IMG/VR virus record: IMGVR_UViG_3300028559_000007
Origin: an uncultured virus (IMG/VR IMGVR_UViG_3300028559_000007)
Lineage: Duplodnaviria; Heunggongvirae; Uroviricota; Caudoviricetes
Direction: 5' to 3' (one strand)
DNA length: 64,000 nucleotides
The notes below the pieces were generated by a model that was not told the DNA's origin, made no database searches, and saw nothing but the letters and a program-made list of their open reading frames with translations. How positions within the stretch are numbered: the first letter of the stretch is position 1; each line of letters begins with the position of its first letter. The position numbers were made by a program, and so were the translations under genes. Below are positions 3,059-63,852 of this stretch, one piece after another.

Positions 3059-3064
3059 TATATA
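3056..3064 (+). promoter_or_regulatory. TAATATATA putative phage late-promoter motif (representative copy)
   Basis: Recurs shortly upstream of many starts on both strands (e.g. 17677, 26118, 36966, 47083, 51730). Confidence 0.6.
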
Positions 3065-49666: not shown

Positions 49667-51018
49667 TGATAACAAAGGAACAACAATCAAGAATTGATAT
49701 TCTTTTTAAGCAAATAGACAACTTGGAGTCTTCGGATTCTTTTACTATGACACCAAGAGGTGTTTGTGAGGAATTGGTTTCACAAAAATTTGATATTGGA
49801 TTATCATACTTAGATATTTGTTGTGGTAAAGGAACTATATTATTGTGCTTATATTTAAGATTTTGGGAGACATTGGATATATCAGATATAGAAGAGAAAA
49901 ATAAATATATACTTGATAGAATATGTGGTGTGGATATATCAAAATCTCAGGCGGATATTGCTAAAAACACACTAAAAAAGGTTCAAAAGATACTAAAAAT
50001 ATCAAACATTATTGAACCTTTTGTATATAATTATAACATCCTTGATGTTGATAAAAAAGAAGTTAATGATTTGAAAAGAAAGTTTAGTTGTGTGATTACA
50101 AATCCTCCTTATAATTCTGAAAGAGGTGATAATAATCAATCTGTGGATATTTACCCAGAATTTGTAGATAAGGCTTTTGAATTGGCTGATAGATATGTGA
50201 TTATGATTACAAAATCTAATTGGATGAATTTTCCTTCTCATAAAAAATTCAGAGAAAAAATGATAAATGGGTATAATGTTGATAAAATTATTCATTATCC
50301 TGAAAATCCATTTAAGGGAACTGATATACAAGGAGGTGTATCTTATTTTGTTATTGATAATCAAAATACAAAAGATACATTTGAATTAAATGGTGTTGTT
50401 TATGATAGAAAAACTGCTTTACATTTTTTACCATATGAATTAGGTGAAAAAGAACTTAAATTATTAGATAAAATAATGTCATTTGAAAAAATAAATTTAA
50501 TAAATTATAGATCAAAGGGTTATTATGATATAAAATCAAATGATAGTAGGTTAATAAAAGAGAAAAAAGAAAATTATATTTATTGTCATGTTTCAGAATT
50601 AAAAGGAAAAGATATGTATTTTCCTACATCAGAATTTAATGAAAAGATTAAAAAAGATTTTGATAAATATAAAGTATTTACAACATCAAGTTATGGTGTT
50701 CCAAATAAATTAGGTAGAATTTTAATTGGTAAAAATGAACTGAATAGTGAAAGTTTAGTAAATTGGGTATTTGATACTGAGCAAGAAATGTATAATTGGT
50801 ATAATTATATGAATACTAAATTATTCAGAGTTTGTGTATCAATGATTAAAAATAAAAAAGATGTTAGTAAAATAACATTTTCTCTAATACCACAAATTGA
50901 TTTTTCAAAATTAGAAAAAGTAGATGATGAAAACATTTATAAGTATCTAAATTTAACAGAGGAAGATATTCAAACTATTGAAGAAAGATGTGAAAGATTA
51001 AAATTAATTAAAAAATAA
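49666..51018 (+). CDS. Eco57I-like N6-adenine DNA methyltransferase
   Basis: LDICCGKG motif I; NPPY motif IV; C-terminal target-recognition-like region. Confidence 0.9.
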   Translation: MITKEQQSRIDILFKQIDNLESSDSFTMTPRGVCEELVSQKFDIGLSYLDICCGKGTILLCLYLRFWETLDISDIEEKNKYILDRICGVDISKSQADIAKNTLKKVQKILKISNIIEPFVYNYNILDVDKKEVNDLKRKFSCVITNPPYNSERGDNNQSVDIYPEFVDKAFELADRYVIMITKSNWMNFPSHKKFREKMINGYNVDKIIHYPENPFKGTDIQGGVSYFVIDNQNTKDTFELNGVVYDRKTALHFLPYELGEKELKLLDKIMSFEKINLINYRSKGYYDIKSNDSRLIKEKKENYIYCHVSELKGKDMYFPTSEFNEKIKKDFDKYKVFTTSSYGVPNKLGRILIGKNELNSESLVNWVFDTEQEMYNWYNYMNTKLFRVCVSMIKNKKDVSKITFSLIPQIDFSKLEKVDDENIYKYLNLTEEDIQTIEERCERLKLIKK

Positions 51019-51028
51019 TAATAAAATT

Positions 51029-51316
51029 ATGAAAATTGTAAAAGAAATTTATTGTGTAAATAAAGACAAAGATGGGGTGATTATAAATGTTGGAGTTATC
51101 AATGAAAAATTGAACGAAAAAGGACAGAAAACATATTCTTCAAAGAAGAAAGAAGATTTCATCAAAGAAGTTAGAGATTTGGAAAAGAAAGGTAATGATG
51201 TAGAAATTAAAACAACAGAAGGAACAGAAGTTCATATCGTAAAAGATAAATATTTAAGAACTGATGGTGATCAATCAAAAGATAATGATCTTTTAGATTT
51301 AAGAGAATGTAAGTAA
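51029..51316 (+). CDS. DUF3892-like protein
   Basis: YLRTDGDQSKDNDLLDLREC ending. Confidence 0.75.
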   Translation: MKIVKEIYCVNKDKDGVIINVGVINEKLNEKGQKTYSSKKKEDFIKEVRDLEKKGNDVEIKTTEGTEVHIVKDKYLRTDGDQSKDNDLLDLRECK

Positions 51317-51331
51317 AAATAATCAGAAGAT

Positions 51332-51739
51332 GTGTCAAAAATTAAAGGAATTGAGAAAATAAAAGAAGAAATAAACAATCTTACCAAATATAGGAAAGAA
51401 CATGCTGATACTTTTGGTGAGGTTTTTACAGATTTCTATCTCATAGAAGAACATGTGTCTAATATTGATCCTAAATTATTTAAGGATCCAACATCAACAT
51501 TTCTTGATCCTTGTGCTGGATTTGGATCATATTCAATTATTCTTATTGAAAAATTAATGGAAGGATTAAAAGACTGGGAACCTAATCCAGAAAAGAGATG
51601 GAAACACATACTTGAAAATCAAATATTTATGGTGGAATTACAAAAGGAATCCTGTGAAATAATAGAGAAATTATTTAATCCATCAGGAAAATATAAGTTA
51701 AATTTATACAATCAGTCATTTTTAGATTTTAATATATAA
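51332..51739 (+). CDS. Methyltransferase SAM-binding half lacking the catalytic NPPY motif
   Basis: FGEVFT and FLDPCAGFG present; ORF ends before motif IV. Confidence 0.75.
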   Translation: MSKIKGIEKIKEEINNLTKYRKEHADTFGEVFTDFYLIEEHVSNIDPKLFKDPTSTFLDPCAGFGSYSIILIEKLMEGLKDWEPNPEKRWKHILENQIFMVELQKESCEIIEKLFNPSGKYKLNLYNQSFLDFNI

Positions 51740-51752
51740 AAATAAAAATCTT

Positions 51753-51956
51753 ATGAAGACAAAAAAATTCAAAGAATTTGTTAATATGGAAGTTGGTTTA
51801 GATTTAGTTAAAAACAAAACTGAAATTAAAACTATTGATTTAACTAAATACAAAGGAATTAACGAAAGTAAAAGCCCAGAAGAACTTAAAAAGGCAGCAG
51901 AAACAATTGGATTAGATCTTACAAAAAATCTATCAAAAAGAATTGATTTGATATGA
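51753..51956 (+). CDS. Small protein with capsid-targeting-like N-terminus
   Basis: MKTKKFKEFVNME; TAATATATA at 51730. Confidence 0.6.
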   Translation: MKTKKFKEFVNMEVGLDLVKNKTEIKTIDLTKYKGINESKSPEELKKAAETIGLDLTKNLSKRIDLI

Positions 51957-52306
51957 AAGTATTAACTGATATTTATATTTTCAAAACATCTGATGATATA
52001 AGAATTTACAAATCACTTTGGGACACTGGTGCTACCGAAACTTTAATTTCAAGTAAAGTCATAACTGAACTGAATTTAGAACAAACAGGAGAAGTTGAAG
52101 TATCAACTATAAATGGAACTATAAACAGCAAAAGATTTGGTTGTGGTTTATTATTAGAAAATCACTCAAAGTCAATAAATATTCAACCGGCTGAATTTTC
52201 TCATAGAAAAGAATGTGATGTAATAATTGGAATGGATATAATCCAACACGGATTATTTATTTTAGATAAAGGTAAATTTTCATTTACAATAGATCAACTC
52301 AAATAA
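51953..52306 (+). CDS. Retropepsin-like aspartic protease
   Basis: LWDTGAT and DVIIGMDII. Confidence 0.88.
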   Translation: MKVLTDIYIFKTSDDIRIYKSLWDTGATETLISSKVITELNLEQTGEVEVSTINGTINSKRFGCGLLLENHSKSINIQPAEFSHRKECDVIIGMDIIQHGLFILDKGKFSFTIDQLK

Positions 52307-52511
52307 TTGATTTTAACATATCATTAAAGTCAATATCAATCACACCATCTAAATCACTATAAAGTTCTCTTAAAATCATCTTTAACCTAACCATTTCATC
52401 ATCCGAAAGCAAACCATCATTCAGTTTATTTCCAAAAACAACTTTTGACATTCCCATTTTCTGAGCCAATAATGTTTGGTTCAATTTCCATTTTTTAATT
52501 ACTTCTAACAT
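52299..52511 (-). CDS. Small HTH protein downstream of the transposase
   Basis: LNQTLLAQKMGMSK. Confidence 0.65.
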   Translation of the reverse strand: MLEVIKKWKLNQTLLAQKMGMSKVVFGNKLNDGLLSDDEMVRLKMILRELYSDLDGVIDIDFNDMLKSII

Positions 52512-53439
52512 TTTTTAATTCTTTATAGGTTAAACGATTGTTAATATTATTAAGGACATAATCAAATCTATAACTTTCTGAAAATCCACGAGTGTTATAT
52601 CTGAAAACAAATTCATCAACATATCTTTGTAAATGTTTCTTACTCATTGAATGATAAATACCCATTATTCCTCTCTTCAAAATTGCCCAAAATCCTTCAA
52701 TTGTATTTGTGTGAATATCACCTTTAACATATTCCTTACTATTGTGTTTTACAACATTATGATCAAAGATTTTAGATAATCCTTTATATCCTAACCATTC
52801 ATCAGTATTTAACGGATTTCCTGATTTTAAGTTTTTGTGTATAAACTTCTTCAAGATTTCTCCTGATGTTCCATCTACAACATTGGCTCTCAATTCGCCA
52901 CCTCTTTTAATAATTCCAACAACTGGGATTTTAGTTTTCAAACTTCTACCTTGTGTTCCCTTTGTCTTTTTACTTTGATGTTTATTCTTTTCTTGACCAC
53001 CAATATAAGTTTCATCTGCTTCACAAGTTCCTTCTAATTTATCAGTTGGTTGATTATTTAATCCTAAACTATGTCTAACTCTATGAAGCATAAACCAAGC
53101 AGTTTTTTGAGTAATTCCTAAATCTTTGTGTAATTGTAAAGATGATATACCTTTCTTATGCGAAGTTATAAGATAAATAGCAGCAAACCATTTTTGTAGA
53201 GATATTTTACTTCCTTCAAACATTGTTCCAACTCTTACTGAAAATTGTTTCTTACATTTATCACACTTATAAACTTTACCATTACTATATTTGAAAACTT
53301 TATCGTGCTTACAATCTTCATAAGGACAGGTTATATTACCATTCCATCTAATTTGTTCCAAATATTCTCTACACACTTGTTCATTATTGAAGTATGTGAA
53401 AAGTTGGACTAAATTATTGAATTTCTGTAAGATTATCAT
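52495..53439 (-). CDS. IS1595-family DDE transposase
   Basis: Zn ribbon CPY..C..CDKC, GISSLQL..TAWFM.HR, EADETY.GG, TDEW..Y, HTNTIEGFW. Confidence 0.96.
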   Translation of the reverse strand: MIILQKFNNLVQLFTYFNNEQVCREYLEQIRWNGNITCPYEDCKHDKVFKYSNGKVYKCDKCKKQFSVRVGTMFEGSKISLQKWFAAIYLITSHKKGISSLQLHKDLGITQKTAWFMLHRVRHSLGLNNQPTDKLEGTCEADETYIGGQEKNKHQSKKTKGTQGRSLKTKIPVVGIIKRGGELRANVVDGTSGEILKKFIHKNLKSGNPLNTDEWLGYKGLSKIFDHNVVKHNSKEYVKGDIHTNTIEGFWAILKRGIMGIYHSMSKKHLQRYVDEFVFRYNTRGFSESYRFDYVLNNINNRLTYKELKNVRSN

Positions 53440-53564
53440 ACATATTATATGATAAAATCACGAAAAAGTTTTTACAAATGTAAATAAAATAATTAAACTT
53501 TCCTAATTTTATTTATATAATTAATAAGAATTAGGTTAAACAAGTATATAGTTCCCAAAAATTA

Positions 53565-54077
53565 TTTAATACAATATTTGAACTAGTAGATAAATTAAAA
53601 GATTATTCTCCAAAATTTTCTTTTAGAGATGATAGTTTTTTAATTATACTTAAAGGAGAAAAAGTTCCTGAAAAATTAATGATATTAAAAGAAGACTTAA
53701 TAAATGCTTATAGAAAATTATATAAATTATTAGATGATTTAAATTCATCTCTTATTAAGAGTGGTGAAGATGTAATAGAGAGAATTGTTTTTTTTAATCA
53801 ATTTAATAAACTATCTATTAAATTTTATGATAGTGCAAAAAAATCTCGATATGGTGCATCAAGAAACTTAGATGATCTACATCAACAAAAAATGTTAAGT
53901 GTTTTAGCATCAATTTGCACATCAATGCAAAATAAAGAAGGATTTGAATGGATCAAAGATCAAGAGAAAATTACAGAATATGAAGAAATAAGAGATGAAA
54001 TTAATGATCTAGGATTTAATATAAAATTTAAAGGAACTGATAGTTTTAATTACGAATTAATAATCTATGAACAATAA
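53565..54077 (+). pseudogene. 3' part of the gene disrupted by the transposon
   Basis: Open frame from the duplication (FNTIFELV..) into ORF 53679..54077; reconstituted protein 273 aa. Confidence 0.85.
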
Positions 54078-54079
54078 AT

Positions 54080-54793
54080 TTATATTAACTTATTTTTTAT
54101 TAATTTATCATTAAAATCACCACTTCTTTCAAAATATTTATTTACAACTTTAAAAGATTTATTTACAAATCTACCACTTGATGTTTTAATAACAATTCCT
54201 TCTCTAATACCATTTCTATAATCAGAATTTTTCTCAGACCATTCAACAATATCTGAAATAGAATTAATTTTTAATTTAATAGGTTTAATATATTTAATAT
54301 TTGTTTTAGATAATAATTCTTCAACTACTTCAGGTGATAAAAACTCATAATCCTCAGCAGACCATATATCATAAGCTATAAATAAATCAGGAATTTTGTC
54401 ATAATATAAGGAATGTTTTGCAAACATCCACTCACCATATATTGTAATTGGTGAATAACACAACTCACTAATAATTTTAATATCATCTTCATGTTTATGA
54501 ATCCAATTCCAAGCTGATGTGAATTGCATCTTAGCAGGTGTTTTTATTTTAGTATATCCTTTTTTAAGAATATGACTTCTATTTCGAAGAATGGGTCCAT
54601 CTGTCCAAGATATACCCATATTAGCACCATCAATTTTTTCTTGAATAAAACACTCAAATGGAAATTGCATAGGAGTATCTAACTCGATATCATCGTGAGT
54701 CATATTAGAAATTTCTTTACTAAAATGTGGTATTCTCCAATAGTCTGGGGCAATATTTCTAATTTTCATTTTCTGTATTTTTATATTTATCAT
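54080..54793 (-). CDS. ATP-dependent RNA ligase family protein
   Basis: EKIDGAN, YGEW, FIAYDI, EGIVIK, FKVV; likely start 54769. Confidence 0.85.
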   Translation of the reverse strand: MINIKIQKMKIRNIAPDYWRIPHFSKEISNMTHDDIELDTPMQFPFECFIQEKIDGANMGISWTDGPILRNRSHILKKGYTKIKTPAKMQFTSAWNWIHKHEDDIKIISELCYSPITIYGEWMFAKHSLYYDKIPDLFIAYDIWSAEDYEFLSPEVVEELLSKTNIKYIKPIKLKINSISDIVEWSEKNSDYRNGIREGIVIKTSSGRFVNKSFKVVNKYFERSGDFNDKLIKNKLI

Positions 54794-54932
54794 AAAGATG
54801 CCATATAGATATAGCGCTCAATTCCAACAGAAAAAAGAAAACTTTATCCGTTGGTTTATCATTGGTTAAAAATGTATATACTACAAATCCAATGATTACA
54901 AATATTTCTAATATTGATATTATCTTTTTCAT
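54759..54932 (-). CDS. Small (57 aa) membrane protein absent from the ORF track
   Basis: MKKIISILEIFVIIGFVVYTFL.., overlaps both neighbours as in an operon. Confidence 0.5.
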   Translation of the reverse strand: MKKIISILEIFVIIGFVVYTFLTNDKPTDKVFFFLLELSAISIWHLYDKYKNTENEN

Positions 54933-55204
54933 CTTTTTAATATACTTTGTATTAATTTATCTAAGTTATATTCTCGTAAATTAGTCTCCTCAACTTTTAC
55001 ATGAACTTTACTTTGTCTTATTTTTTCTATTTTAAGTATTCTAAGATACTTGCTATTCCAATATACTAAATTATCATTAGAATTTATAAAGTTAATAACT
55101 TCTTTATTGTTTTTAAACTCTAAAATAACAATTCCCGGTAAATGATCAAATTTTGTTAATTTCCATCTATCTTGATTGGATAAAACTTTTGCGTGTTGTA
55201 TCAT
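54929..55204 (-). CDS. Hypothetical protein (REYNLDKLI tail)
   Basis: ORF in ligase operon. Confidence 0.6.
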   Translation of the reverse strand: MIQHAKVLSNQDRWKLTKFDHLPGIVILEFKNNKEVINFINSNDNLVYWNSKYLRILKIEKIRQSKVHVKVEETNLREYNLDKLIQSILKR

Positions 55205-55859
55205 ATATTTCTAATAGTTTTTTATCTCCGTTAAGTTCTTCAAGAAGAGCTCTTTCTCCATGTAAAGTCTTTACTTTTTGAATCCAATCAATAGTTTTAA
55301 CTTTTACCATCCAAATTTCATCTTTTTGTTTTTTCGTTTTTGAAATACCTTTAACAATGACTCCCTCTTTTAATTTATATTTATTGTTTCTAATATCTTG
55401 AACAAAATCCATTGTATATTTTCCCTTATAAATAATATCTGGTATATGTAAATGTCCAAAATCTTCAATAAAGTTTTTTGGAGTAACAAATCCATGTTTA
55501 TATTGGTCAACATCAAATAGTATAATATCTTTTGGATCACTATCAATATGACGACCAGCAAAGGATTCATCTCCAAAATATTCAGCAAATACTAAAAAAC
55601 TTTCAATTCGTTTATAACTTTTATTTGTTCTGAATACTTTAGGAAGACTATCACCATACTTATTTAAAAATAGTGTGATAGCCTCTCCAAATTGTAAATC
55701 TCTTTCATCAATCATTATATTTCTGGTTCCAAATTTATACCATCCTCTTTTAGGATTCCATTCAGCACGAATATTACTACCATCTAATTTATCAAATGCA
55801 TAGATGTCTTCGTTAAATATACCCTGGTTAAAATATTGTATTCTTGGATAACTTTTCAT
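55167..55859 (-). CDS. RNA ligase-like nucleotidyltransferase
   Basis: DKLDGSN, FAEY, LFDV, EGVIVK, VKVK. Confidence 0.85.
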   Translation of the reverse strand: MKSYPRIQYFNQGIFNEDIYAFDKLDGSNIRAEWNPKRGWYKFGTRNIMIDERDLQFGEAITLFLNKYGDSLPKVFRTNKSYKRIESFLVFAEYFGDESFAGRHIDSDPKDIILFDVDQYKHGFVTPKNFIEDFGHLHIPDIIYKGKYTMDFVQDIRNNKYKLKEGVIVKGISKTKKQKDEIWMVKVKTIDWIQKVKTLHGERALLEELNGDKKLLEIYDTTRKSFIQSR

Positions 55860-55863
55860 AATT

Positions 55864-56070
55864 TTATTTATTTAATTCTTTTTTAATCCACTCTTTAAGC
55901 TGATGCTTTTCAGAGCGTTTTACTCCACGTTTTTCACGTTCAAGATCTTTTTTGATTTTCTTAACCATATTTGGATCTTGTATAAAATGAAGAGCTCTTT
56001 TTCTTTTCTTTATGCTTTGGACCTTTTCTTCATATATGTTTTCAAAGTCCTCGTTAACATCGGTTTTCAT
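55864..56070 (-). CDS. Small basic protein
   Basis: ORF in operon. Confidence 0.55.
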   Translation of the reverse strand: MKTDVNEDFENIYEEKVQSIKKRKRALHFIQDPNMVKKIKKDLEREKRGVKRSEKHQLKEWIKKELNK

Positions 56071-56411
56071 AGTCTTTCAGATTTTTTATAAGCTAATTCA
56101 TAGCTTGAGTTAATTTTTTTATATAGCTTTTCAGCCGTAAATTCTTCTAAATGTTTTCCCTTAGTTTGGATAATATACCACTCAGTATATCCACAATTAA
56201 ATTGTTCTGCTTTAAAGTGACAACCATCATAACAATCGCAAAGTGTTATACCATTCTCCTTTACATATCCACCATTTGGTATATTTTTTCTTGAAGTTAT
56301 ATGATGTGCATCAAGTTTAACATCACTTTTACCGCACATTACACACTTAAAGTTGTCTCTTTCAAAAACATCTTTTCTAAATTTATCTCTTATTTGTTGT
56401 TTGATTTTCAT
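56067..56411 (-). CDS. HNH endonuclease
   Basis: VFERDNFKCVMCG..DAHHI..NGITLC..CH. Confidence 0.88.
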   Translation of the reverse strand: MKIKQQIRDKFRKDVFERDNFKCVMCGKSDVKLDAHHITSRKNIPNGGYVKENGITLCDCYDGCHFKAEQFNCGYTEWYIIQTKGKHLEEFTAEKLYKKINSSYELAYKKSERL

Positions 56412-56439
56412 ATCTGTTTAATTTTTTATTTTTGGGCAT

Positions 56440-56600
56440 AAAAAACCCAGTCAACTTTTGATTGACTGGGTAGATAGTTATAGCACTACTGACCTTGGTC
56501 AATCATTTCTGAATATGTAGTACATTATTTTCATTTATATTATATTTTATTTATTATCTGTTTATATTACAAATATACAAAAAGTTTTTAAACTTCCAAA
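56440..56600 (-). promoter_or_regulatory. Attenuator: promoter, leader peptide MKIMYYIFRND (56534-56499), antiterminator and terminator upstream of the RNA ligase operon
   Basis: TTTG-19-TATATTTG; terminator ACCCAGTCAA/TTGACTGGGT plus U-tract; TGATTGAC at the leader stop is complementary to terminator arm GTCAATCA. Confidence 0.75.
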
Positions 56601-56617
56601 ATTAATTATTTTAGATT

Positions 56618-57109
56618 TTATCTACTTCCATATTGTATACCTTGCAGTACTATTGTTCCATCAGTTCTTTCGTGTATAAATCCAGATGATTTTATTATTT
56701 CTTGTGGAGTATTACCTTTAGAATAATCTGATGAAATGATTACTTCTGTTTCTAATCCCAAAGTTTCAAGATATTGTATAATATCTTTTACTCTAATTTT
56801 AGTATTTGATTTTTCTTGACTCCATTCACCATCAGTCCTTTCACCATCAATCATATATTCTTCTAAACTTTCATTTAAAAAATTTTTAAACTCTTTAATA
56901 TGAGTAAGTTTTTGATCTTTAGCTAAAAACTTCTCAGCATCAATTTTTTTCGAGTTAGGTTTTCTATAAGTTCCTTTCTTTGGTTTTTCAGCTAAATGAT
57001 CTTCACTTGATAAAGTCGAATTATTTGGTTTTTTAGATGAAACATGTCCTTGTTTCTTCATGTCTTTAGACAACTTCTGGTCTTTGTGGTTTATTTGTTT
57101 ATGATTCAT
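56618..57109 (-). CDS. Hypothetical protein
   Basis: ORF; internal HIKEFKNFLNES motif. Confidence 0.6.
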   Translation of the reverse strand: MNHKQINHKDQKLSKDMKKQGHVSSKKPNNSTLSSEDHLAEKPKKGTYRKPNSKKIDAEKFLAKDQKLTHIKEFKNFLNESLEEYMIDGERTDGEWSQEKSNTKIRVKDIIQYLETLGLETEVIISSDYSKGNTPQEIIKSSGFIHERTDGTIVLQGIQYGSR

Positions 57110-57127
57110 AATAGTATATATATTTTT

Positions 57128-57562
57128 TTACCAACCAATATTTTTACTTAAACTTGAATTAAATCCACCAAAATGATTAAATAATCTATCTTTCATATAT
57201 TCACCAGCTTTACCATGAAATAATTTATTATCTGAACTACCATGTCTCCAAAGGTATGCTAACTCACGGTGTGACATACTATCGATCTTTTCTTTGTCTT
57301 CTGGTGATAATTCTTCTTCTTTATTCTCGTTTAATTTGGAAAAAGAGTTGAAATTTAAAATCTTACACTCTTTAACTTTTTCAGGTAAGTTTTTATGTTT
57401 AGTTTTTGCAAATTTCTTTAATTGTTCTTCGGTCATTGAGTTGGCTAATTTCTTTATTTCATCAGCATATTGAGGACTTAAATCTTTAAATTTAACATCG
57501 CCTCTTTTATAAGCAAGTGCTTGGGCCATTAACCGTTGTTGAGCTATTGATTTAGACGGCAT
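57128..57562 (-). CDS. DUF3008-like protein
   Basis: MPSKSIAQQRLM..SMTEEQLKKFAKTKHKNLPEK. Confidence 0.7.
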   Translation of the reverse strand: MPSKSIAQQRLMAQALAYKRGDVKFKDLSPQYADEIKKLANSMTEEQLKKFAKTKHKNLPEKVKECKILNFNSFSKLNENKEEELSPEDKEKIDSMSHRELAYLWRHGSSDNKLFHGKAGEYMKDRLFNHFGGFNSSLSKNIGW

Positions 57563-57626
57563 ATAAGTATTTAATTTTACTTATATATTAACTATAATTA
57601 TTGACTTTTATAAATTGTATCGAAAG

Positions 57627-57715
57627 CAGAGGTAGCCGTAATCGAAACGGGCCCGTCATTACACGGTTCTTGTTTTCCAAACAAGCGAGAGCCACCTGCT
57701 CTACCTACTACCTCT
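57627..57715 (-). tRNA. tRNA-Ser(GGA)
   Basis: AGAGGTA/TACCTCT acceptor, CTTGT-TTGGAAA-ACAAG, long variable arm; non-canonical T arm. Confidence 0.8.
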
Positions 57716-57722
57716 AAATTTG

Positions 57723-57795
57723 TAGTTCCAGTGAGATTCGAACTCACATTATATCTTTCGCAAAGATATGTCCTATCCAATTGGACGATGGAACC
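57723..57795 (-). tRNA. tRNA-Arg(GCG)
   Basis: Full cloverleaf; TATCT-TTGCGAA-AGATA. Confidence 0.88.
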
Positions 57796-57801
57796 TAATT
57801 T

Positions 57802-58500
57802 TTATTTTACTCTACCTCTTAATATATCTGAAATTGTACTTCTAGCACATCCTAATCTTAATGATATTTCTTTATTTGTTAGTCCTTCTTTGTGCCACTC
57901 AAAGACAATTTCTCTATCTATTTTTTTTGAAATTTTTTTTATTTTATAGTTTTTTATTAAATCTATATTTTCTATATAAAAATTCATATCAAAATGTTCA
58001 GAAACGTGACAATTAGAACAAAGTACTTCACATTTTTTTATCTCATTTTTAATAATATTATTCAATTCATGTATTGAGTTTAATCTCTCACTCAAAGATC
58101 CAATTGAAAATGTTTTTTCATTCGGATCTCGATGGTGAAATGTCAATCCTGATGCACACTTATTATATCCACATTTTACACATTTAGCACCGGCATATTC
58201 TAAATAGATAATTTTATCATTTCTTCTTTTATCATTTATGTTTGACTTCTCTGAAAAATGTAATTCTCTATGGCAATTTTGACATAGTAATTGACACTTT
58301 TTAGCTTCCTTTAATATCATGTCAAAAGAACAAGATGATTTCTCACTAATTCGGAACTCTTTTTCTTTATCAACATGATGAAAACAGAGATGTATAAAAT
58401 CATCATTTCCACATATCTGACAACATCCACCTAATTCACTTACTAATAAAATTTTATTTTTTATTCTTCTTATTTTTTGTAATATGTTCTTATTACTCAT
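57802..58500 (-). CDS. Homing endonuclease with two HNH-like domains and C-terminal HTH, inside the tRNA array
   Basis: Two CxxCG..FHH..C..LCxNCH units; NKEISLRLGCARSTIS. Confidence 0.85.
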   Translation of the reverse strand: MSNKNILQKIRRIKNKILLVSELGGCCQICGNDDFIHLCFHHVDKEKEFRISEKSSCSFDMILKEAKKCQLLCQNCHRELHFSEKSNINDKRRNDKIIYLEYAGAKCVKCGYNKCASGLTFHHRDPNEKTFSIGSLSERLNSIHELNNIIKNEIKKCEVLCSNCHVSEHFDMNFYIENIDLIKNYKIKKISKKIDREIVFEWHKEGLTNKEISLRLGCARSTISDILRGRVK

Positions 58501-58542
58501 GGTCGAGTTTTATTTTTATATATAAAAATAAAACTCGACCAT
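58499..58542. promoter_or_regulatory. Perfect 44-bp palindrome overlapping the endonuclease start codon
   Basis: ATGGTCGAGTTTTATTTTTATA/TATAAAAATAAAACTCGACCAT. Confidence 0.8.
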
Positions 58543-58553
58543 TTGTACTTTTG

Positions 58554-58645
58554 CGGAAGTGGTGAGTGCCGACCTCACTCGCCGGTTTTTAGCCGGCCTA
58601 TCACGTTAGCAATGTGACCCCTTTGCCATCATTGGGTACACTTCC
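58554..58645 (-). tRNA. tRNA-Ser(GCT)
   Basis: GGAAGTG/CACTTCC acceptor, loop TTGCTAA, long variable arm; T loop GTCGGCA. Confidence 0.8.
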
Positions 58646-58712
58646 AAAAATAAGAATACAAGGGTTACCAATCTTTACCAGTGGTTAATTGGTGGCTTAT
58701 ATATTCTTTAAG

Positions 58713-58801
58713 CGGAGGTAACAGGAGTCCAACCTGTACGCCGGAGTTTCACCGACCTAGCCGTTTTCAAGACGGTGTACCTCTGTCAACTGGGTACCTC
58801 C
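58713..58801 (-). tRNA. tRNA-Ser(TGA), atypical D and T loops
   Basis: GGAGGTA/TACCTCC, CCGT-CTTGAAA-ACGG, long variable arm. Confidence 0.7.
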
Positions 58802-58809
58802 AAAATTTG

Positions 58810-58898
58810 AGGAGGAAATCAGATTCGAACTGATGAATCATATTTCTACGATTTTCGCTTTTCAAGAGCGACGGAATAAACCACTCTCCCATTCCTCC
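58810..58898 (-). tRNA. tRNA-Ser(TGA)
   Basis: Canonical class II cloverleaf; TCGCT-CTTGAAA-AGCGA. Confidence 0.88.
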
Positions 58899-58904
58899 AA
58901 TAAT

Positions 58905-58977
58905 TCGGTGTCATTCTCCTATTATGATACTATGTGTAGCTATTTCACACGATGGGATTCGAACCCACATCTACCGA
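58905..58977 (-). ncRNA. Circularly permuted tRNA-like RNA (YrlA-type arm order)
   Basis: TCGGT/ACCGA closing stem, then T arm GTGGG-TTCGAAT-CCCAT, loop-closed stem GTGTG/TACAC, D-like arm TCAT-AATAGGAGA-ATGA. Confidence 0.65.
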
Positions 58978-58980
58978 TTG

Positions 58981-59059
58981 ACCTCCAGGTGAGATTCGAA
59001 CTCACATCTATCCGTTACGGTATTTAACTTGTTTCGAAGACAAGGCCGATACAGGAGGT
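58981..59059 (-). tRNA. tRNA-Arg(TCG)-like RNA lacking a D arm, with extended variable region
   Basis: ACCTCC/GGAGGT acceptor, CTTGT-CTTCGAA-ACAAG, GTGAG-TTCGAAT-CTCAC. Confidence 0.65.
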
Positions 59060-59062
59060 TAT

Positions 59063-59102
59063 AAAATAAAAAATCCTCGAACTTTTTCAAATTCGAGGAT
59101 TT
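59063..59102 (-). terminator. Attenuator terminator upstream of the Ser/Arg tRNA block
   Basis: AAATCCTCGAA/TTCGAGGATTT stem plus U-tract on minus strand. Confidence 0.85.
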
Positions 59103-59127
59103 CGTGTATTTTTATTTTAGCAATACA

Positions 59128-59196
59128 TTACCATCTTCGAATTTTATTCGAACTACGACTTGACGACGATAATGATGTATTGTTCATGATTTTCAT
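59128..59196 (-). CDS. Ser/Arg-rich leader peptide MKIMNNTSLSSSSRSSNKIRRW
   Basis: 7 Ser and 3 Arg codons in 22; lies between promoter and terminator; overlaps antiterminator segment. Confidence 0.8.
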   Translation of the reverse strand: MKIMNNTSLSSSSRSSNKIRRW

Positions 59197-59211
59197 ATTA
59201 TTTATATATTA

Positions 59212-59243
59212 CAAATATACTTTTTTGTTTTTAAATTTCCAAA
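59212..59243 (-). promoter_or_regulatory. Bacteroidota-type promoter (TTTG-20-TATATTTG) directly followed by TAATATATA
   Basis: Exact consensus match. Confidence 0.75.
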
Positions 59244-59249
59244 TTTTAT

Positions 59250-59747
59250 TTAAAAATTATCTGATACTTCTCTAATTTCTTTATATTTTTCATAAAATAC
59301 AAACATTTTTTCTGCATCACTTATGTTAAGATATTTTAAAGAAAAGAATGTTGGCATTCCATTTACTGAAGTTGGTCCGGCTTGATCTAAATATTCATAG
59401 ATAAGTCCTATATTTCCCAAGAATACTTTTTTAAAAATTTTATATTCTTGATTATATAATATAATATCATTATCATATTTTTTTTGTTCAATCTCTCTAT
59501 CAACAATATCATAAATTACATTATCTCTTTTACCAGATAATGTACTATTTTCTGATGGATAAGATGGTGATTTAGGAACATCGGGCCCAATAAACATTAA
59601 ACACATGAAACAACTATTAACATCAGAAGATGATCTACAGTGGCGGTCAGTATATATGATTCCATTATATAGATCTTTAGCTATTTTTTTTAGTTCATCT
59701 TCTGTTGATGAATTAATAGTCCATTTATTTATCCAATCTTGTTCCAT
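59250..59747 (-). CDS. Hypothetical protein
   Basis: ORF; IYEYLDQAGP..VNGMP.F motif. Confidence 0.65.
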   Translation of the reverse strand: MEQDWINKWTINSSTEDELKKIAKDLYNGIIYTDRHCRSSSDVNSCFMCLMFIGPDVPKSPSYPSENSTLSGKRDNVIYDIVDREIEQKKYDNDIILYNQEYKIFKKVFLGNIGLIYEYLDQAGPTSVNGMPTFFSLKYLNISDAEKMFVFYEKYKEIREVSDNF

Positions 59748-59764
59748 TTTGTAAATATAATAAT

Positions 59765-60061
59765 TTATTCAATTATATCATTTAAAACTTTACCAAATTG
59801 TATAATATATTGCTCAAGTAATCTAAACTCATTATCTGAATCACCATCAAGTCTATAATGTCTGAAGTTTTTTATATCCATAAATCTCATTTCATAACCA
59901 CAATTAAATGGTGTTTCTATCTGATTAGTGTAGAAAATAGTAAATACTAATCTAGCATTTCCAGAATTAACTCCTTGAACCCATACTTTTGTAATATTAG
60001 GTCTTAATCTAGAGTTAATAATATCTCTTAATTTAATTAATGTAATTGAGAATGTGTCCAT
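59765..60061 (-). CDS. Hypothetical protein
   Basis: ORF. Confidence 0.6.
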   Translation of the reverse strand: MDTFSITLIKLRDIINSRLRPNITKVWVQGVNSGNARLVFTIFYTNQIETPFNCGYEMRFMDIKNFRHYRLDGDSDNEFRLLEQYIIQFGKVLNDIIE

Positions 60062-60086
60062 ATAATTATTTATTTTTAAAGATTTG

Positions 60087-60215
60087 CGGGGAGGGTTGGA
60101 TTCGAACCAACGACTTATATGTTCAAAATATACGAAGTAACTCTTTCGATCAACACTCTTTTCAGAGGTAAAGTTTCAAAAGAGATAGTTTACTCTACCA
60201 CTGAGCTACCTCCCC
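60087..60215 (-). ncRNA. tRNA-like RNA with about 55-nt insertion after the D arm
   Basis: GGGGAGG/CCTCCCC acceptor, D arm GCTC-AGTGGTA-GAGT, T arm GTTGG-TTCGAAT-CCAAC, inserted hairpin CTCTTTT..GAAAAGAG. Confidence 0.7.
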
Positions 60216-60220
60216 ATTTG

Positions 60221-60303
60221 TGGAACTGGTGGGACTCGAACCCACGACGTGATTTATCAGGCGGCTTAAGAGGCCGATGCAATCGCCACTATGCGACAGT
60301 TCC
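60221..60303 (-). tRNA. tRNA-Lys(CTT) with long variable arm
   Basis: CGGC-CTCTTAA-GCCG; variable arm TGAT-AA-ATCA. Confidence 0.82.
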
Positions 60304-60308
60304 GAATG

Positions 60309-60394
60309 TGTGCCTGGTGGGATTCGAACCCACGATGTGGTATTAACCAGACGGTTTAAAAGACCGTTGCTCTCAGCCGCTGAGCGACAAGCAC
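60309..60394 (-). tRNA. tRNA-Lys(TTT) with long variable arm
   Basis: ACGGT-CTTTTAA-ACCGT; variable arm TGGT-TAAT-ACCA. Confidence 0.82.
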
Positions 60395-60399
60395 ATTAG

Positions 60400-60482
60400 T
60401 CCGTCCGGTAGAATTCGAATCTACGATGTCACAAGGAGTCAGATTAAAAGTCTGATGGTATCAGCCACTCACCCACGGACGG
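60400..60482 (-). tRNA. tRNA-Lys(TTT) with long variable region
   Basis: TCAGA-CTTTTAA-TCTGA; 14-nt variable region. Confidence 0.8.
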
Positions 60483-60495
60483 ATTATATATTTTG

Positions 60496-60568
60496 TGCGT
60501 CCGAAGGGATTTGAACCCTTAACCTGCTGGTTAAAAGCCAGCTACTCTAACAATTGAGTTACGAACGC
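60496..60568 (-). tRNA. tRNA-Lys(TTT)
   Basis: Class I cloverleaf; GCTGG-CTTTTAA-CCAGC. Confidence 0.9.
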
Positions 60569-60611
60569 GGTTTACTTTCGGGTCGGTTCGTGAATCAACC
60601 ACTTACCAACC

Positions 60612-60653
60612 CTATCGTTTATATTTTCGTTTTATTATTGTAATAGTTCTCAT
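60612..60653 (-). CDS. Lys/Arg-rich mini-ORF MRTITIIKRKYKR ahead of the Lys tRNAs
   Basis: 13 codons; stop overlaps hairpin 60580-60612. Confidence 0.45.
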   Translation of the reverse strand: MRTITIIKRKYKR

Positions 60654-60746
60654 TTTATTATAATTTTTTAGGTCAATTCGATGTAGCTTATAACACCTCG
60701 ATTTAATCTTCTGTTCGTATGAAGAACTTCTCGAATTAACATTTAG

Positions 60747-60817
60747 CACGAGTGGCTACAATCGAAGTAGCTCGTGAAGATTTTGGAGATCCCACCGACA
60801 CCAAGCCTGTCACCCGT
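60747..60817 (-). tRNA. tRNA-Trp(CCA), atypical D arm
   Basis: ACGGGTG/CACTCGT, GGGAT-CTCCAAA-ATCTT, CTAC-TTCGATT-GTAG. Confidence 0.7.
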
Positions 60818-60822
60818 ATTTG

Positions 60823-60895
60823 TGGTTTCAGACGGACTTGAACCGCCGACGCTCGCCTCTTCAGGGCGACGCTCTACCAACTGAGCTATGAAACC
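60823..60895 (-). tRNA. tRNA-Phe(GAA)
   Basis: Canonical; TCGCC-CTGAAGA-GGCGA. Confidence 0.93.
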
Positions 60896-60900
60896 TTTTG

Positions 60901-60990
60901 CATACTCGTAGGGATTCGAACCCTCACCAATCGTTAGACCCCTTTCGGAGAGCGGGTTGGAGCCGCCTGGTCACGCCTATGAGCGAGTAC
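60901..60990 (-). tRNA. tRNA-Trp(CCA)-like RNA with extra arm
   Basis: GTACTCG/CGAGTAT, GCGG-CTCCAAC-CCGC, extra GAAA-tetraloop hairpin, T loop TTCGAAT. Confidence 0.65.
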
Positions 60991-60998
60991 ATTTTTTG

Positions 60999-61072
60999 GG
61001 TGAATGACGGGTTTCGATCCCGCTGCCTTAGGTGCCACAAACCTACGCTCTACCAATTGAGCTACAATCACC
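60999..61072 (-). tRNA. tRNA-His(GTG)
   Basis: G-1/C73; TAGGT-TTGTGGC-ACCTA. Confidence 0.9.
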
Positions 61073-61102
61073 ATTTTGTCATCCTGTTAAATCAGGACTT
61101 CG

Positions 61103-61175
61103 TGGAGTCTCCCGGTTACGATCCGGGTCCTCTGGTTTTTCAGACCAGTGCTTCTACCAAGTTAGCTTAGACTCC
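61103..61175 (-). tRNA. tRNA-Phe(GAA)
   Basis: GGAGTCT/AGACTCC; CTGGT-CTGAAAA-ACCAG. Confidence 0.85.
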
Positions 61176-61180
61176 ATTTG

Positions 61181-61253
61181 GGTGTTATATGGGATTTGAA
61201 CCCATCCCCTGGTTTTCACAGAACCAGATGCTTACCACTACAACAACAACACC
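61181..61253 (-). tRNA. tRNA-His(GTG)
   Basis: G-1/C73; TGGTT-CTGTGAA-AACCA. Confidence 0.82.
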
Positions 61254-61255
61254 AT

Positions 61256-61292
61256 AAAAACAAAAAACCCGAATCTTTTGGATTCGGGTTTT
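61256..61292 (-). terminator. Attenuator terminator upstream of the His/Phe/Trp/Lys tRNA block
   Basis: AAAACCCGAATC/GATTCGGGTTTT stem plus U-tract. Confidence 0.85.
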
Positions 61293-61320
61293 GGAATTTC
61301 TCTATCAAAAACTACGATAA

Positions 61321-61425
61321 TTATACTATCTCATTTTTTGGCAGTTCGTTCTTAGTACCGAATCGATGGCTAAAATGCCATTTAAACGATTTACTAAAAG
61401 ATTTATGTGTACGAACTGTTGTCAT
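61321..61425 (-). CDS. Leader peptide MTTVRTHKSFSKSFKWHFSHRFGTKNELPKNEIV
   Basis: 3 His, 4 Phe, 5 Lys, 1 Trp; contains GATTCGG complementary to the terminator 5' arm. Confidence 0.75.
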   Translation of the reverse strand: MTTVRTHKSFSKSFKWHFSHRFGTKNELPKNEIV

Positions 61426-61473
61426 TATTTCTATATATTAAATTTTATTTCTCTCTTTGTTTCTTTTACATTA

Positions 61474-61504
61474 CAAATATACAAAAGTTTTCTGTAATAC
61501 CAAA
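61474..61504 (-). promoter_or_regulatory. Bacteroidota-type promoter (TTTG-19-TATATTTG)
   Basis: Exact consensus match. Confidence 0.75.
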
Positions 61505-61657
61505 TTATTTATTATTTATTTTTATCTTCTATTGTTTACTTGGTAAAATCAGTATTTTTTATTATTTTTAACATTACAAATGTATATAAACTTTTTTAAA
61601 CCACCAAATTAATTTTATTAACAAAATTTTCATATATTTGTGTTATATATAATTATA

Positions 61658-61813
61658 ATGGAAGAAAGACCAAGTAAACCTATAAAAGAATATGCTCCAC
61701 AAGGAACAAAAGATTGTGAATCTAATTGTGAGAGAGAAGTAATAATGACTCCAAGGGGGCCTGTTATTGTTTGCCATTTTTGTGAACGAATAGTTCTTGA
61801 GATTCGCAAATGA
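61658..61813 (+). CDS. Small 51-aa Cys-containing (Zn-ribbon-like) protein absent from the ORF track
   Basis: MEERPSKP..CESNC..CHFC..; TATATTTG upstream at 61633-61640. Confidence 0.55.
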   Translation: MEERPSKPIKEYAPQGTKDCESNCEREVIMTPRGPVIVCHFCERIVLEIRK

Positions 61814-61823
61814 TATATAAGAT

Positions 61824-62327
61824 ATGAAACATCTTAAGAAATTTAATGAATCAATAAATATATATGATATAGATTGGCATAATATAGTTCCAAAGTATCT
61901 TACCATAATTAAAGATGATAGAACTACAAAATTTAAATGTGGTAATATAATGAAACATTTTGATATGGTTCAAGTTACCTATGATACTGATCAAGGAGAA
62001 ATATGGGGAGTTCCGGATACACTAGAGTTTGATGTATATTTTGTAAAACCAGGCGGTAAAATTGATAAATCACTAAGATTAGATATAGATATAACATATG
62101 GTAATTTAGTTACTTCAGAATTTAGTATTACAACACCTAGTAAAGTTAATGTAATACAATATACATCATATCATTCTAAATTTGATCCATCAAATACAGT
62201 ATTTGCTTTTGATGAAGATAGCCTTGAAAAATTAATTAAATTTTTTAATGTTTTTAATGGAATTAAAGTATCAAGAGAACAATTTAATTTTCTTGATGCA
62301 GATCCTAACAATTACTATCCTAATTAA
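61824..62327 (+). CDS. Hypothetical protein, capsid-targeting-like N-terminus
   Basis: MKHLKKFNES. Confidence 0.7.
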   Translation: MKHLKKFNESINIYDIDWHNIVPKYLTIIKDDRTTKFKCGNIMKHFDMVQVTYDTDQGEIWGVPDTLEFDVYFVKPGGKIDKSLRLDIDITYGNLVTSEFSITTPSKVNVIQYTSYHSKFDPSNTVFAFDEDSLEKLIKFFNVFNGIKVSREQFNFLDADPNNYYPN

Positions 62328-62328
62328 A

Positions 62329-62365
62329 AATTAAAACCCCTTCAATATTTGAAGGGGTTTTAATT
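62329..62365. terminator. Bidirectional terminator
   Basis: 17-bp stem AATTAAAACCCCTTCAA/TTGAAGGGGTTTTAATT between convergent genes. Confidence 0.8.
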
Positions 62366-62384
62366 ATAAGATATCAAATTATTA

Positions 62385-62660
62385 TTAAGAGTTAACAACA
62401 TTTGAAAGACCTGATCCTGCCTTAAAACGAGCAGCTCTTTTAGATGGAATATTAAGTTCTACACCAGTTTTTGGATTACGACCTTTACGAGCTTTACGTG
62501 TGATTGTATCAAAAGTTCCAAAACCAACTAATGTTACTTTTTCACCATTTACAAGAGCTCCTTGGATAGATTCTACAATACTATCAACAACCTCCCCAGT
62601 TTTTGTTTTTGTTAAACCAGTTTTCCCGGAAATTTCGTTAACTAAATCTGCTTTATTCAT
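62385..62660 (-). CDS. hup: HU family DNA-binding protein
   Basis: MNKADLV..GEKVTLVGFGTF..RKGRNPKTG. Confidence 0.96.
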   Translation of the reverse strand: MNKADLVNEISGKTGLTKTKTGEVVDSIVESIQGALVNGEKVTLVGFGTFDTITRKARKGRNPKTGVELNIPSKRAARFKAGSGLSNVVNS

Positions 62661-62737
62661 TTATTTAATTTGTTTTTTCTATGAATTTCTTCATTAATAA
62701 TTATATACATAGAATCAATCAAGGTTTTAAAAGTTTA

Positions 62738-62977
62738 CTAGTTTTTTGTATATTTTTCAATAAATTCATTTAGACTTTTCCCAGTATTTGCCAGATAAAT
62801 AACTGCAATAAATCCAATAATGAATAATATTGAAAATATAATTAAACATGGAATCCAATATGGCGAAAATACCCACCACCAAGACCAATTTATATTATTA
62901 GTTAATTTTAATATTGAAAAAATAATAACAAGTAAAGTTAAAAAATTGATACCGGATTTTTCATTTTACTGATCCAT
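62738..62977 (-). pseudogene. Small membrane protein (WSWWWV.SP.W type) with a stop at codon 4
   Basis: ATG GAT CAG TAA AAT GAA AAA TCC GGT..LKLTNNINWSWWWVFSPYWIP..TAG in one frame. Confidence 0.65.
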
Positions 62978-62978
62978 A

Positions 62979-63338
62979 TTAAAAAGATGTAGTCCTCATA
63001 TAATTTGTAAATATTTCTTCACCCGGATATATATCTTTAACAGCTGTGAATATATAACAGTTATTTTCTATATCAGTTGTCCAGGTTGCATTATTATCTT
63101 CTCTATGATTATAAATACTTCCGAACCCTAAAACAACTGCATGAGAATCCTTAGTAAATAAAGGCCATGAAAAAGTATATTCTTTCAATGAGTTATCTAA
63201 TTTTTCAAAATTAGATTCATTTAAGTGTATGAAATGACATTCTTCTATTACTTCACCAGATAATATCATGTCATTTGTAAAAACTCCTTTTCCGTGAATA
63301 GGAGAATCTTTAACTATAATTTTACTAGAAACAAACAT
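62979..63338 (-). CDS. SET-domain protein methyltransferase
   Basis: SPIHGKGVF, GSIYNH..N, DIYPGEEIFTNY. Confidence 0.92.
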   Translation of the reverse strand: MFVSSKIIVKDSPIHGKGVFTNDMILSGEVIEECHFIHLNESNFEKLDNSLKEYTFSWPLFTKDSHAVVLGFGSIYNHREDNNATWTTDIENNCYIFTAVKDIYPGEEIFTNYMRTTSF

Positions 63339-63410
63339 ATAATTTATATTTAGAATATTTTTTTTGTTTAGAATTATTCCTTATATTTATAAAACAAACA
63401 ACTATAAATA

Positions 63411-63842: not shown

Positions 63843-63852
63843 TATATAATGT

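Follow-up and report, generated by a model that had tools for sequence, protein, structure and literature searches.

An element on the minus strand at positions 56600 to 56440 of the uncultured virus IMGVR_UViG_3300028559_000007 (Caudoviricetes), of which a whole stretch of 64,000 nucleotides was analyzed (the window), is likely to control a phage RNA-ligase operon as a ribosome-mediated (leader-peptide) transcription attenuator. The element is real and conserved as a regulatory element: the layout formed by the parts listed below is found before the same operon in relatives, which bears out the attenuator on the RNA-ligase operon that a preliminary description of this DNA had proposed.

56600-56570, minus strand: putative promoter of the Bacteroidetes sigma-A type from a motif scan, with TTTG (56600-56597), 19 nt, and TATATTTG (56577-56570)
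56534-56499, minus strand: leader open reading frame (ORF) MKIMYYIFRND of 11 codons, with ATG at 56534-56532, Tyr codons at 56522-56517 and stop TGA at 56501-56499
56523-56483, minus strand: leader hairpin, with outer stem GTACTAC (56523-56517):GTAGTGC (56489-56483) and inner stem TGAC (56501-56498):GTCA (56493-56490)
56505-56498, minus strand: antiterminator 5' strand b, TGATTGAC, which holds the leader stop codon
56466-56459, minus strand: antiterminator 3' strand c, GTCAATCA, made of the distal part of the terminator 5' arm and the first two loop bases
56471-56440, minus strand: intrinsic terminator from a consensus scan, ACCCAGTCAAT-CAAAA-GTTGACTGGGT (56471-56445, 11 bp) followed by six T (56445-56440)

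In the mechanism that we propose, transcription would start at the predicted site (~56565) and the 11-codon leader would be translated while the RNA polymerase moves ahead. The strand TGATTGAC, which lies on the last codons and the stop codon of the leader, would pair with the emerging 5' arm of the terminator and so prevent formation of the terminator hairpin. A ribosome that arrives in time at codon 9 to the stop would cover this strand, the terminator would fold and transcription would end at 56445-56440, releasing a leader RNA of approximately 125 nt. A late ribosome, held for example at codons 2-6, which include the two Tyr codons, would leave the antiterminator in place, and the polymerase would read through into the genes for an HNH nuclease, a 68-amino-acid (aa) protein and the two RNA ligases. 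The sequence elements, their conservation, the place of the ORF relative to the switch and the thermodynamic preference of each state come directly from the analysis; that the leader is translated, that ribosome and polymerase are coupled and how the competition ends kinetically is inferred.

The leader MKIMYYIFRND is present where it had been described (codons ATG-AAA-ATA-ATG-TAC-TAC-ATA-TTC-AGA-AAT-GAT-TGA), and the perfect complementarity of 8 nt between TGATTGAC and GTCAATCA is likewise confirmed, with the antiterminator strand spanning the leader stop codon. When the upstream 150 nt were subjected to dinucleotide shuffling (n = 300), a complement of at least 8 nt to the terminator 5' arm arose in 5 of the 300 shuffles, and a complement together with a suitably placed ORF in none of them. 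The exact terminator sequence occurs a single time in the window. The competing hairpin of the preliminary description needed correction: the string TGACC-AA-GGTCA is indeed present (56501-56490), but it cannot close on a 2-nt loop, and what appears in the fold is a helix of 4 bp, TGAC:GTCA, with a CAAG loop, enclosed by a 7-bp outer stem that had been omitted. This outer stem overlies the Met-Tyr-Tyr codons, and the minimum free energy (MFE) fold of the leader hairpin has -11.7 kcal/mol.

The ribosome position that the model requires agrees with in silico folding. In nascent RNA cut before the terminator 3' arm, the MFE structure was the antiterminator TGAUUGAC:GUCAAUCA with two inner helices (-17.0 kcal/mol, P 0.97). 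With the ribosome footprint represented as a mask extending 15 nt upstream and 12 nt downstream of the A-site codon, the probability of the antiterminator was 0.97 for A-site codons 2-6, 0.71 for codon 7, 0.36 for codon 8 and 0.00 from codon 9 to the stop. These values agree with the earlier claims that a ribosome stalled early leaves the antiterminator intact (codons 2-6) and that a ribosome at the stop permits termination. The behavior is shared by the relatives, in which the b:c probability was 0.79-1.00 in 30/30 nascent transcripts of the ligase type and the last permissive A-site codon was codon 7-9 in 29 of the 30, with locus L105 permissive up to the stop. For the further claim, that absence of translation induces the operon, the results point both ways. 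At equilibrium the ribosome-free nascent RNA does prefer the antiterminator (-17.0 versus -11.7 kcal/mol), and this preference was found in 32/32 ligase-type rows; however, without a ribosome the leader hairpin forms first, and nested refolding from it to the antiterminator has to cross a barrier of 11.4 kcal/mol, which would be slow relative to the ~1 s that the polymerase needs. The b:c pairing could also form as a pseudoknot with the outer stem kept closed. A "toehold", that is, a b strand left unpaired within the leader hairpin of the ligase-type units, was considered and rejected, as 0-6 of the 8-17 nucleotides of b are unpaired (2/10 in the window).

The genes that would be controlled by the switch are the following.

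56411-56067, minus strand: HNH nuclease gene (114 aa, Pfam HNH), the first gene after the switch in the window
56070-55864, minus strand: gene of a 68-aa basic protein, the start of which overlaps the HNH stop; the conserved first gene of the operon
55859-55167, minus strand: RNA ligase-like gene (230 aa; Pfam PF09414, PHROG 548 "RNA ligase")
55204-54929, minus strand: 91-aa gene between the two ligase-like genes
54793-54080, minus strand: second RNA ligase-like gene (237 aa; Pfam PF09414, PHROG 548 "RNA ligase")

Genes around the switch run on the minus strand, and 206 nt separate the 163-aa ORF upstream (57109-56618) from the HNH gene. Both ligases pass the PF09414 cut-off of 27 bits (30.0 and 89.4 bits) and carry the KxDG motif in their translations, and neither has a sequence match in the PDB. 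Going by their membership of the RNA ligase family only, they are probable RNA-repair genes, as the preliminary description had called them. For the 68-aa protein, no match was found in Pfam, PHROG, NCBIfam or Atlas. In its best PHROG match (3.4e-16), the HNH protein aligns with positions 1-65 of an "RNA ligase" family that is 342 positions long, and the 237-aa ligase matches the C-terminal part of the PHROG family whose N-terminus matches HNH. Because the two proteins match opposite ends of one family, HNH-ligase fusions seem to exist, and the HNH protein may be a working part of the ligase module rather than a homing nuclease. Two genes (~0.6 kb) past the end of the ligase operon, the phage genome contains an IS1595-family transposase gene (52495-53439, minus strand).

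Among deposited phages, the DNA relatives of the window are only two uncultured phage genomes of 634,780 and 642,428 bases, the similarity of which spans the RNA-ligase genes at 68-71% identity. A first set of loci was retrieved through proteins alone (HNH, the 230-aa ligase and the deposited phages) and gave 15 contigs with a homologue of the 68-aa protein. The whole layout of promoter motif, mini-ORF, GATTGAC and terminator with GTCAAT arms is present in 10 of these 15 contigs, which represent nine distinct sequences; in L065 and L066, promoter, mini-ORF and terminator are present and a complement is not evident. The unit directly precedes the 68-aa gene, and HNH is missing, in the two deposited phages and four IMG/VR contigs (five with L063, whose element is identical to that of L062), so the unit belongs to the ligase operon and not to HNH. 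Metagenome contigs were scanned with a pattern that demanded GATTGAC and the terminator, both of which are therefore present by construction in the 38 loci obtained. Four of these (L104, L107, L113, L114) were set aside as chance matches, being coding-like by eye and devoid of the leader layout, and L112, which is cut before the ATG, was excluded from the ORF counts. The layout lies ahead of the ligase operon in 28 further metagenome loci, and in 32 further distinct sequences before the same operon. Across 35 distinct sequences the mean column identity is 57%, and both the leader ATG and the GATTGAC core are invariant (35/35), the core not being forced in the nine protein-retrieved sequences.

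Gene order was compared in 39 rows, 33 of the ligase type and six of a tRNA-Gln type that is described below. The 68-aa gene follows the terminator directly, at 27-77 nt and with no HNH gene, in 22 of the 33 ligase-type rows; HNH is the first gene in six (the window, L004, L005, L108, L112 and L126), the 68-aa gene lies 787-864 nt downstream in two, and three have too little sequence or no match. Of the previously described switch on an HNH/RNA ligase operon, the ligase operon therefore stands, and HNH turns out to be an optional passenger that 22/33 rows lack. A TAnnTTTG motif lies upstream of the leader in 23/36 rows, as motif evidence for the promoter, and the 60 nt or less that follow the terminator were free of it in all 39 rows. 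The operon would therefore depend on read-through for host-type transcription.

The leader ORF itself looks translated. In all complete relatives an ORF of 11-18 codons starts with ATG and closes 3-22 nt past the G of GATTGAC. Because the ORF criterion helped to pick the ATG, the presence of the ORF in 33/33 distinct sequences is no test of this; the closure of the other frames is, and across the leader span these are open in 0/33 and 1/33 distinct sequences. Relative to the leader ORF, GATTGAC lies in phase 0, 1 and 2 in 13, 4 and 16 of the 33 sequences, respectively. A core kept in three phases and an ORF that always ends on it fit an attenuator, and not a coding constraint or an RNA constraint alone. 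Beside this, a TATATA[AG] motif (often TAATATATAA) lies at most 25 nt upstream of the leader start in 22/33 distinct units, 5-20 nt before the ATG and also in units that have no promoter motif nearby; the motif may serve translation initiation or belong to a phage promoter.

Covariation was informative for the terminator, in which one pair appears as AU in 21, UA in 12 and GC in 2 sequences, a score reached by 0/500 shuffles. Among the eight closest relatives covariation was not significant, one outer-stem pair being UG in 5, CG in 2 and UA in 1, and RNAalifold, when applied to subfamily A, returned the inner hairpin and the terminator alone, as alignment indels had cost it the outer stem. Two single cases favor the antiterminator pairing as anecdotes. 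In L131 a terminator A-U pair has become G-C and the base after GATTGAC has become C, which favors b:c pairing, and in L059 the terminator 3' arm lacks the bases that pair with AAT, while the loop keeps AATC, which pairs only with the upstream GATT. As a separate observation, nine close relatives (L102, L106, L109, L112, L119, L120, L125, L134 and L135) carry a second, tandem terminator (ACCCAGTTAG...CTGGGT and a T run) directly after the first, which the window lacks. In a fold of L106 with the antiterminator imposed, the 3' arm released from terminator 1 paired over 10 bp with the 5' arm of terminator 2, and in this modeled fold one switch could open both terminators in domino fashion.

The strongest support for the mechanism class comes from sister units, from which the same phages appear to use attenuators elsewhere. 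A blind detector that asked for a terminator, an upstream complement of at least 7 nt and an ORF ending on the complement responded to three of the window's five strong terminators and, over all loci, only to the kinds of unit described here. The two other units of the window and one unit of a metagenome locus are located as follows.

59243-59070, minus strand: Ser/Arg sister attenuator, with leader MKIMNNTSLSSSSRSSNKIRRW at 59196-59128, terminator at 59103-59070 and a promoter of the same type
61504-61264, minus strand: His/Phe sister attenuator with the same promoter type, 34-codon leader (61425-61321) and terminator 61292-61264
1453-1564 of locus L115: Gln unit, followed by tRNA-Gln and GlnRS genes at 1568-1876 and 1895-3064

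The genes after the Ser/Arg unit are tRNA-Ser(UGA), Ser(GCU), Arg(GCG) and Ser(GGA), and its leader contains the Ser codons TCA, TCG and AGT and one Arg codon, CGT, which are read by the downstream tRNA anticodons. Ser and Arg make up 10/21 residues of this leader (P 3e-5; this and the values below are relative to the protein composition of the window). The His/Phe unit precedes tRNA-His, Phe, His and Phe, and its leader has 3 His and 4 Phe in the first 22 codons; the enrichment is 7 of the first 21 residues (P 4e-4, in a window chosen post hoc) or 7/33 overall (P 8e-3). The stems of these two sisters are unrelated in sequence, yet the leader of each contains, further upstream, a second copy of the 3' arm of that unit's terminator, the upstream AAATTCGA of the Ser/Arg unit and GATTCGG of the His/Phe unit being complementary to the terminator 5' arm and the terminator arm, respectively, of the same unit. 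In silico, both behave like classical attenuators: they form a large leader hairpin with the terminator arm free when no ribosome is present, an antiterminator when the ribosome is at codons 2-15 or 2-17, and none when it is further on. The strict two-box promoter motif with TAAT occurs in four copies in the 64 kb, all on the minus strand (61608-56570). The fourth copy (61577-61608, minus strand) lies ~100 nt upstream of the His/Phe-unit promoter, and neither a leader ORF nor a terminator that would belong to it was found.

The window chassis itself recurs with another leader. Six metagenome loci (L099, L101, L115, L118, L122 and L129) have GATTGAC/CCCTGTCAAT with the leader MTTFTQYQQQQQINQTD, which holds 7 Gln in 16 codons (P 1e-7), and these units directly precede 2-4 tRNA-Gln genes; in L115, the one locus checked beyond them, the next gene passes the NCBIfam cut-off for glutamine-tRNA ligase. 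To judge from their makeup, the Gln units are modular reuse of one switch with a rewritten leader. L115 (550-703) and L101 also have a leader MKTFVNIFVSQPQPQVVIDQDPDTIKANCVFM with its own terminator before tRNA-Asp/tRNA-Pro, in which the enrichment of Asp and Pro is weak (6/31, P 0.09), and L001 and L003 have Ser-rich leaders ahead of tRNA-Ser/Arg genes. The ribosome-free preference for the antiterminator seen in the ligase-type rows is absent in the Ser, His/Phe and 4/6 Gln units and present in the Asp/Pro unit of L115 and the two other Gln units.

Several features of the surrounding tRNA region were recorded alongside. The region before the tRNA-Lys genes (60570-60830) was rejected as an attenuator, since it has a 13-codon ORF and no terminator. 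Several of the tRNA-Lys genes (60087-60482, minus strand) are 84-87 nt long, one Rfam tRNA match is spread over 129 nt (60087-60215), and these genes may contain insertions or introns. Two T-arm-like stretches (...GTTCGAATC...) that ARAGORN did not report as tRNAs lie within 58900-59070 (minus strand), after the Ser/Arg terminator and before the first tRNA-Ser call, and a weak tRNA-Sec-like Rfam match lies at 58714-58801. The tRNA array is broken up at 57802-58542 by the gene of a 232-aa protein with a repeated Cys/His nuclease-like motif and a C-terminal helix-turn-helix, at the start of which there is a perfect palindromic hairpin of 20 bp (58499-58542).

A number of results weigh against the attenuator. 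The complete leader transcript adopts the leader hairpin together with the terminator (-28.2 kcal/mol), imposing the antiterminator on it costs 8.4 kcal/mol and the terminator always wins at equilibrium, so the attenuator model rests on kinetics. Covariation of the antiterminator is not significant: its 7-bp core never varies, 66/500 shuffles reach the score of the flank, and the flank pair is UA in 13, CG in 1 and UG in 1 sequence and unpaired in 20/35. Five of the 15 protein-retrieved contigs lack the GATTGAC element (two with a partial layout, three with nothing), and the core and terminator of L099-L136 were required by the search pattern. A search of RNA runs returned a single run with any of the stretch (6% of the words of the stretch, in the form of contigs, from which RNA ends cannot be read). 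The window leader has no codon run (Tyr 2/10, P 0.08), which places the element in the attenuator class and not in the amino-acid-specific subclass, and the His, Tyr and Thr codons of the leaders fall on the (CAUA)-like outer-stem strand, so that leader codon content may reflect RNA pairing.

As to what an attenuator of this kind would sense, there is in our judgment about an even chance that it senses slow or failing translation in general, as the preliminary description had proposed. For termination, a ribosome has to arrive in time at the end of the 11-codon ORF, so any delay in initiation or elongation would give read-through, and the absence of a codon run and the ribosome-free preference for the antiterminator in 32/32 ligase-type rows fit this reading. 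Tuning of the sensor to Tyr/His decoding is conceivable, though we hold it to be doubtful. The special case in which the attenuator acts as a tuned damage sensor, a shortage of tRNA-Tyr or tRNA-His (caused, for example, by a host anticodon nuclease) inducing the ligases that would reseal the tRNA, seems unlikely to us. It has in its favor that Tyr-Tyr or His-Tyr stands at codons 5-6, that stalls up to codon 6 keep the switch, with codon 7 the last above P 0.5, and that codons 5-6 are aligned with the point where the Gln run stops in the sister chassis, which ends in the same GAT-TGA. Counting one leader per subfamily, His and Tyr account for 7/20 last permissive codons, where the background is 6.2% (P 1.3e-4, in a post hoc window), and for 9/69 codons over whole leaders (P 0.026); the subfamilies are related, however, and the counts not independent. 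The enrichment is not significant in the window alone, one subfamily leader (MKVTKTTLRIIMIDLTSQ) has neither Tyr nor His, the Tyr/His codons overlap the outer-stem strand, and no nuclease target is known for the host. Operons of subfamily A, whose leaders contain His, do carry a truncated HisRS-like gene in 12/12 rows with enough sequence. This gene is absent from the operon of the window; in L001 (3098-3733) it encodes a fragment-like HisRS/HisZ-type catalytic core of 210 aa that scores below the NCBIfam cut-offs. A broader version, which we also regard as improbable rather than likely, takes the leader as a decoy: a stall at Tyr/His (NAY) codons after tRNA loss to a defense nuclease would induce the HNH/RNA-ligase repair module (with the HisRS-like gene in relatives), and the Gln, Ser/Arg, His/Phe and Asp/Pro sisters would induce replacement tRNAs and GlnRS, giving a counter-defense network that is programmable and codon-addressed.

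Other explanations do without a ribosome-read switch. The strong promoter motif and strong terminator that flank ~125 nt could delimit a stand-alone gene for a small RNA or micropeptide acting in trans, with the complement incidental or serving RNA stability; since termination is the equilibrium outcome such an RNA would be abundant, and attenuator-derived RNAs with functions in trans exist, as reported for rnTrpL (PMC6614838). We consider this quite improbable, because the operon has no host-type promoter of its own (0/39 rows) and always lies within 26-77 nt of the terminator, because GATTGAC is kept in three reading phases with the ORF ending on it, and because the leaders of the sister units are codon-matched; moreover, a role in trans could coexist with attenuation. 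Mobile nuclease genes offer a different precedent, phage Aeh1 mobE being kept silent by a terminator, and in the window and five other rows HNH does come first after the terminator, which could insulate a free-standing HNH homing endonuclease and travel with its gene. The distribution of the unit makes this very improbable: HNH is missing beside it in 22/33 rows, a terminator close to the gene start is missing in 54/56 loci of HNH relatives (one of these, L054, shows a weak site ~290 nt upstream), and both loci that have one (2/56) are RNA-ligase operons, while the match of HNH to the N-terminus of an RNA-ligase family suggests a working partner of the ligases. That an ordinary terminator of the upstream gene is accompanied by a mini-ORF and a complement by chance is hardly credible. 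AT-rich DNA does give many short ORFs, and a promoter-like scan of the region was at background (99 found versus 95.9 expected), but complement and ORF together arose in 0/300 shuffles, the layout is conserved across 35 distinct sequences at 57% mean column identity, and the upstream gene is separated from the leader by a dedicated promoter motif. We favor the leader-peptide attenuator as the best explanation.

Leader-peptide attenuators are classically those of the enterobacterial amino-acid operons and pheST, namely trpL, hisL, leuL, thrL, pheL and pheM. The window element shares with them the putative promoter, the short ORF, the predicted mutual exclusion of antiterminator and terminator hairpins and the proposed use of ribosome position as signal, and the Ser/Arg, His/Phe and Gln sister units share their codon-run logic; the pheL attenuator is described in PMC3082878. 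It differs from them in that the window leader has no codon run, the antiterminator strand itself carries the stop codon, the nascent RNA prefers the antiterminator even when ribosome-free, and the cargo is a phage RNA-ligase operon in a host type, Bacteroidetes, whose mRNAs are described as lacking Shine-Dalgarno sequences (PMC6847099, PMC9723704). No Rfam leader family (His, Trp, Thr, Leu and others) matched 56440-56600 at E up to 1; on the Ser/Arg unit, a His_leader match at 59065-59178 remained sub-threshold (31.6 versus 49 bits). The T-box riboswitches of aminoacyl-tRNA synthetase genes directly bind uncharged tRNA and work without an ORF. They too choose between terminator and antiterminator on tRNA status, whereas the sensor of the present switch would be a translated ORF, and the T-box covariance model had no match in 50000-64000 at E up to 1. 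The induction logic is that of the RtcR-controlled rtcBA operon, in which RNA repair is induced through a protein activator when the translation apparatus is damaged, the switch being instead a cis RNA that would be read by the ribosome. A parallel in signal is PA5471.1/armZ of Pseudomonas aeruginosa, for which impaired or stalled ribosomes are proposed to restructure the RNA and prevent termination, a mechanism that still needs confirmation according to the review (PMC12057347). Like the window leader, PA5471.1, a proposed general sensor of translation trouble, is short and has no amino-acid run; sequence and organism are unrelated, and its cargo is the anti-repressor of an efflux pump (PMC12057347).

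The setting is compatible with such a device. The G+C content of the window is ~25%, and most of its proteins have no Pfam family, the exceptions being a ClpP-type protease, helicases, methylases and homing-type nucleases; the source is a giant or huge lake-water phage with predicted Bacteroidetes-type promoters. The Bacteroidetes sigma-A consensus is given as TTTG/TANNTTTG at -33/-7 with a G at -5 (PMC6847099). For flavobacteria, "strong clues" to leader-peptide attenuation upstream of amino-acid operons are reported (PMC9723704), and the host machinery would therefore be able to support it. A literature search, which left most subscription journals outside it, found no title or abstract on leader-peptide attenuation of phage RNA-ligase or tRNA genes.

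Phage RNA ligases are classically seen as counter-measures to host tRNA cleavage, and we know of no account of how phages time their production. A cis switch read by the ribosome would, if our reading is true, tie ligase expression to the state of translation with no need for a protein regulator. Its elements are short, modular and conserved, and the same device, placed with codon-matched leaders on tRNA genes, provides a testable model for the tRNA arrays of huge phages and for their deployment.

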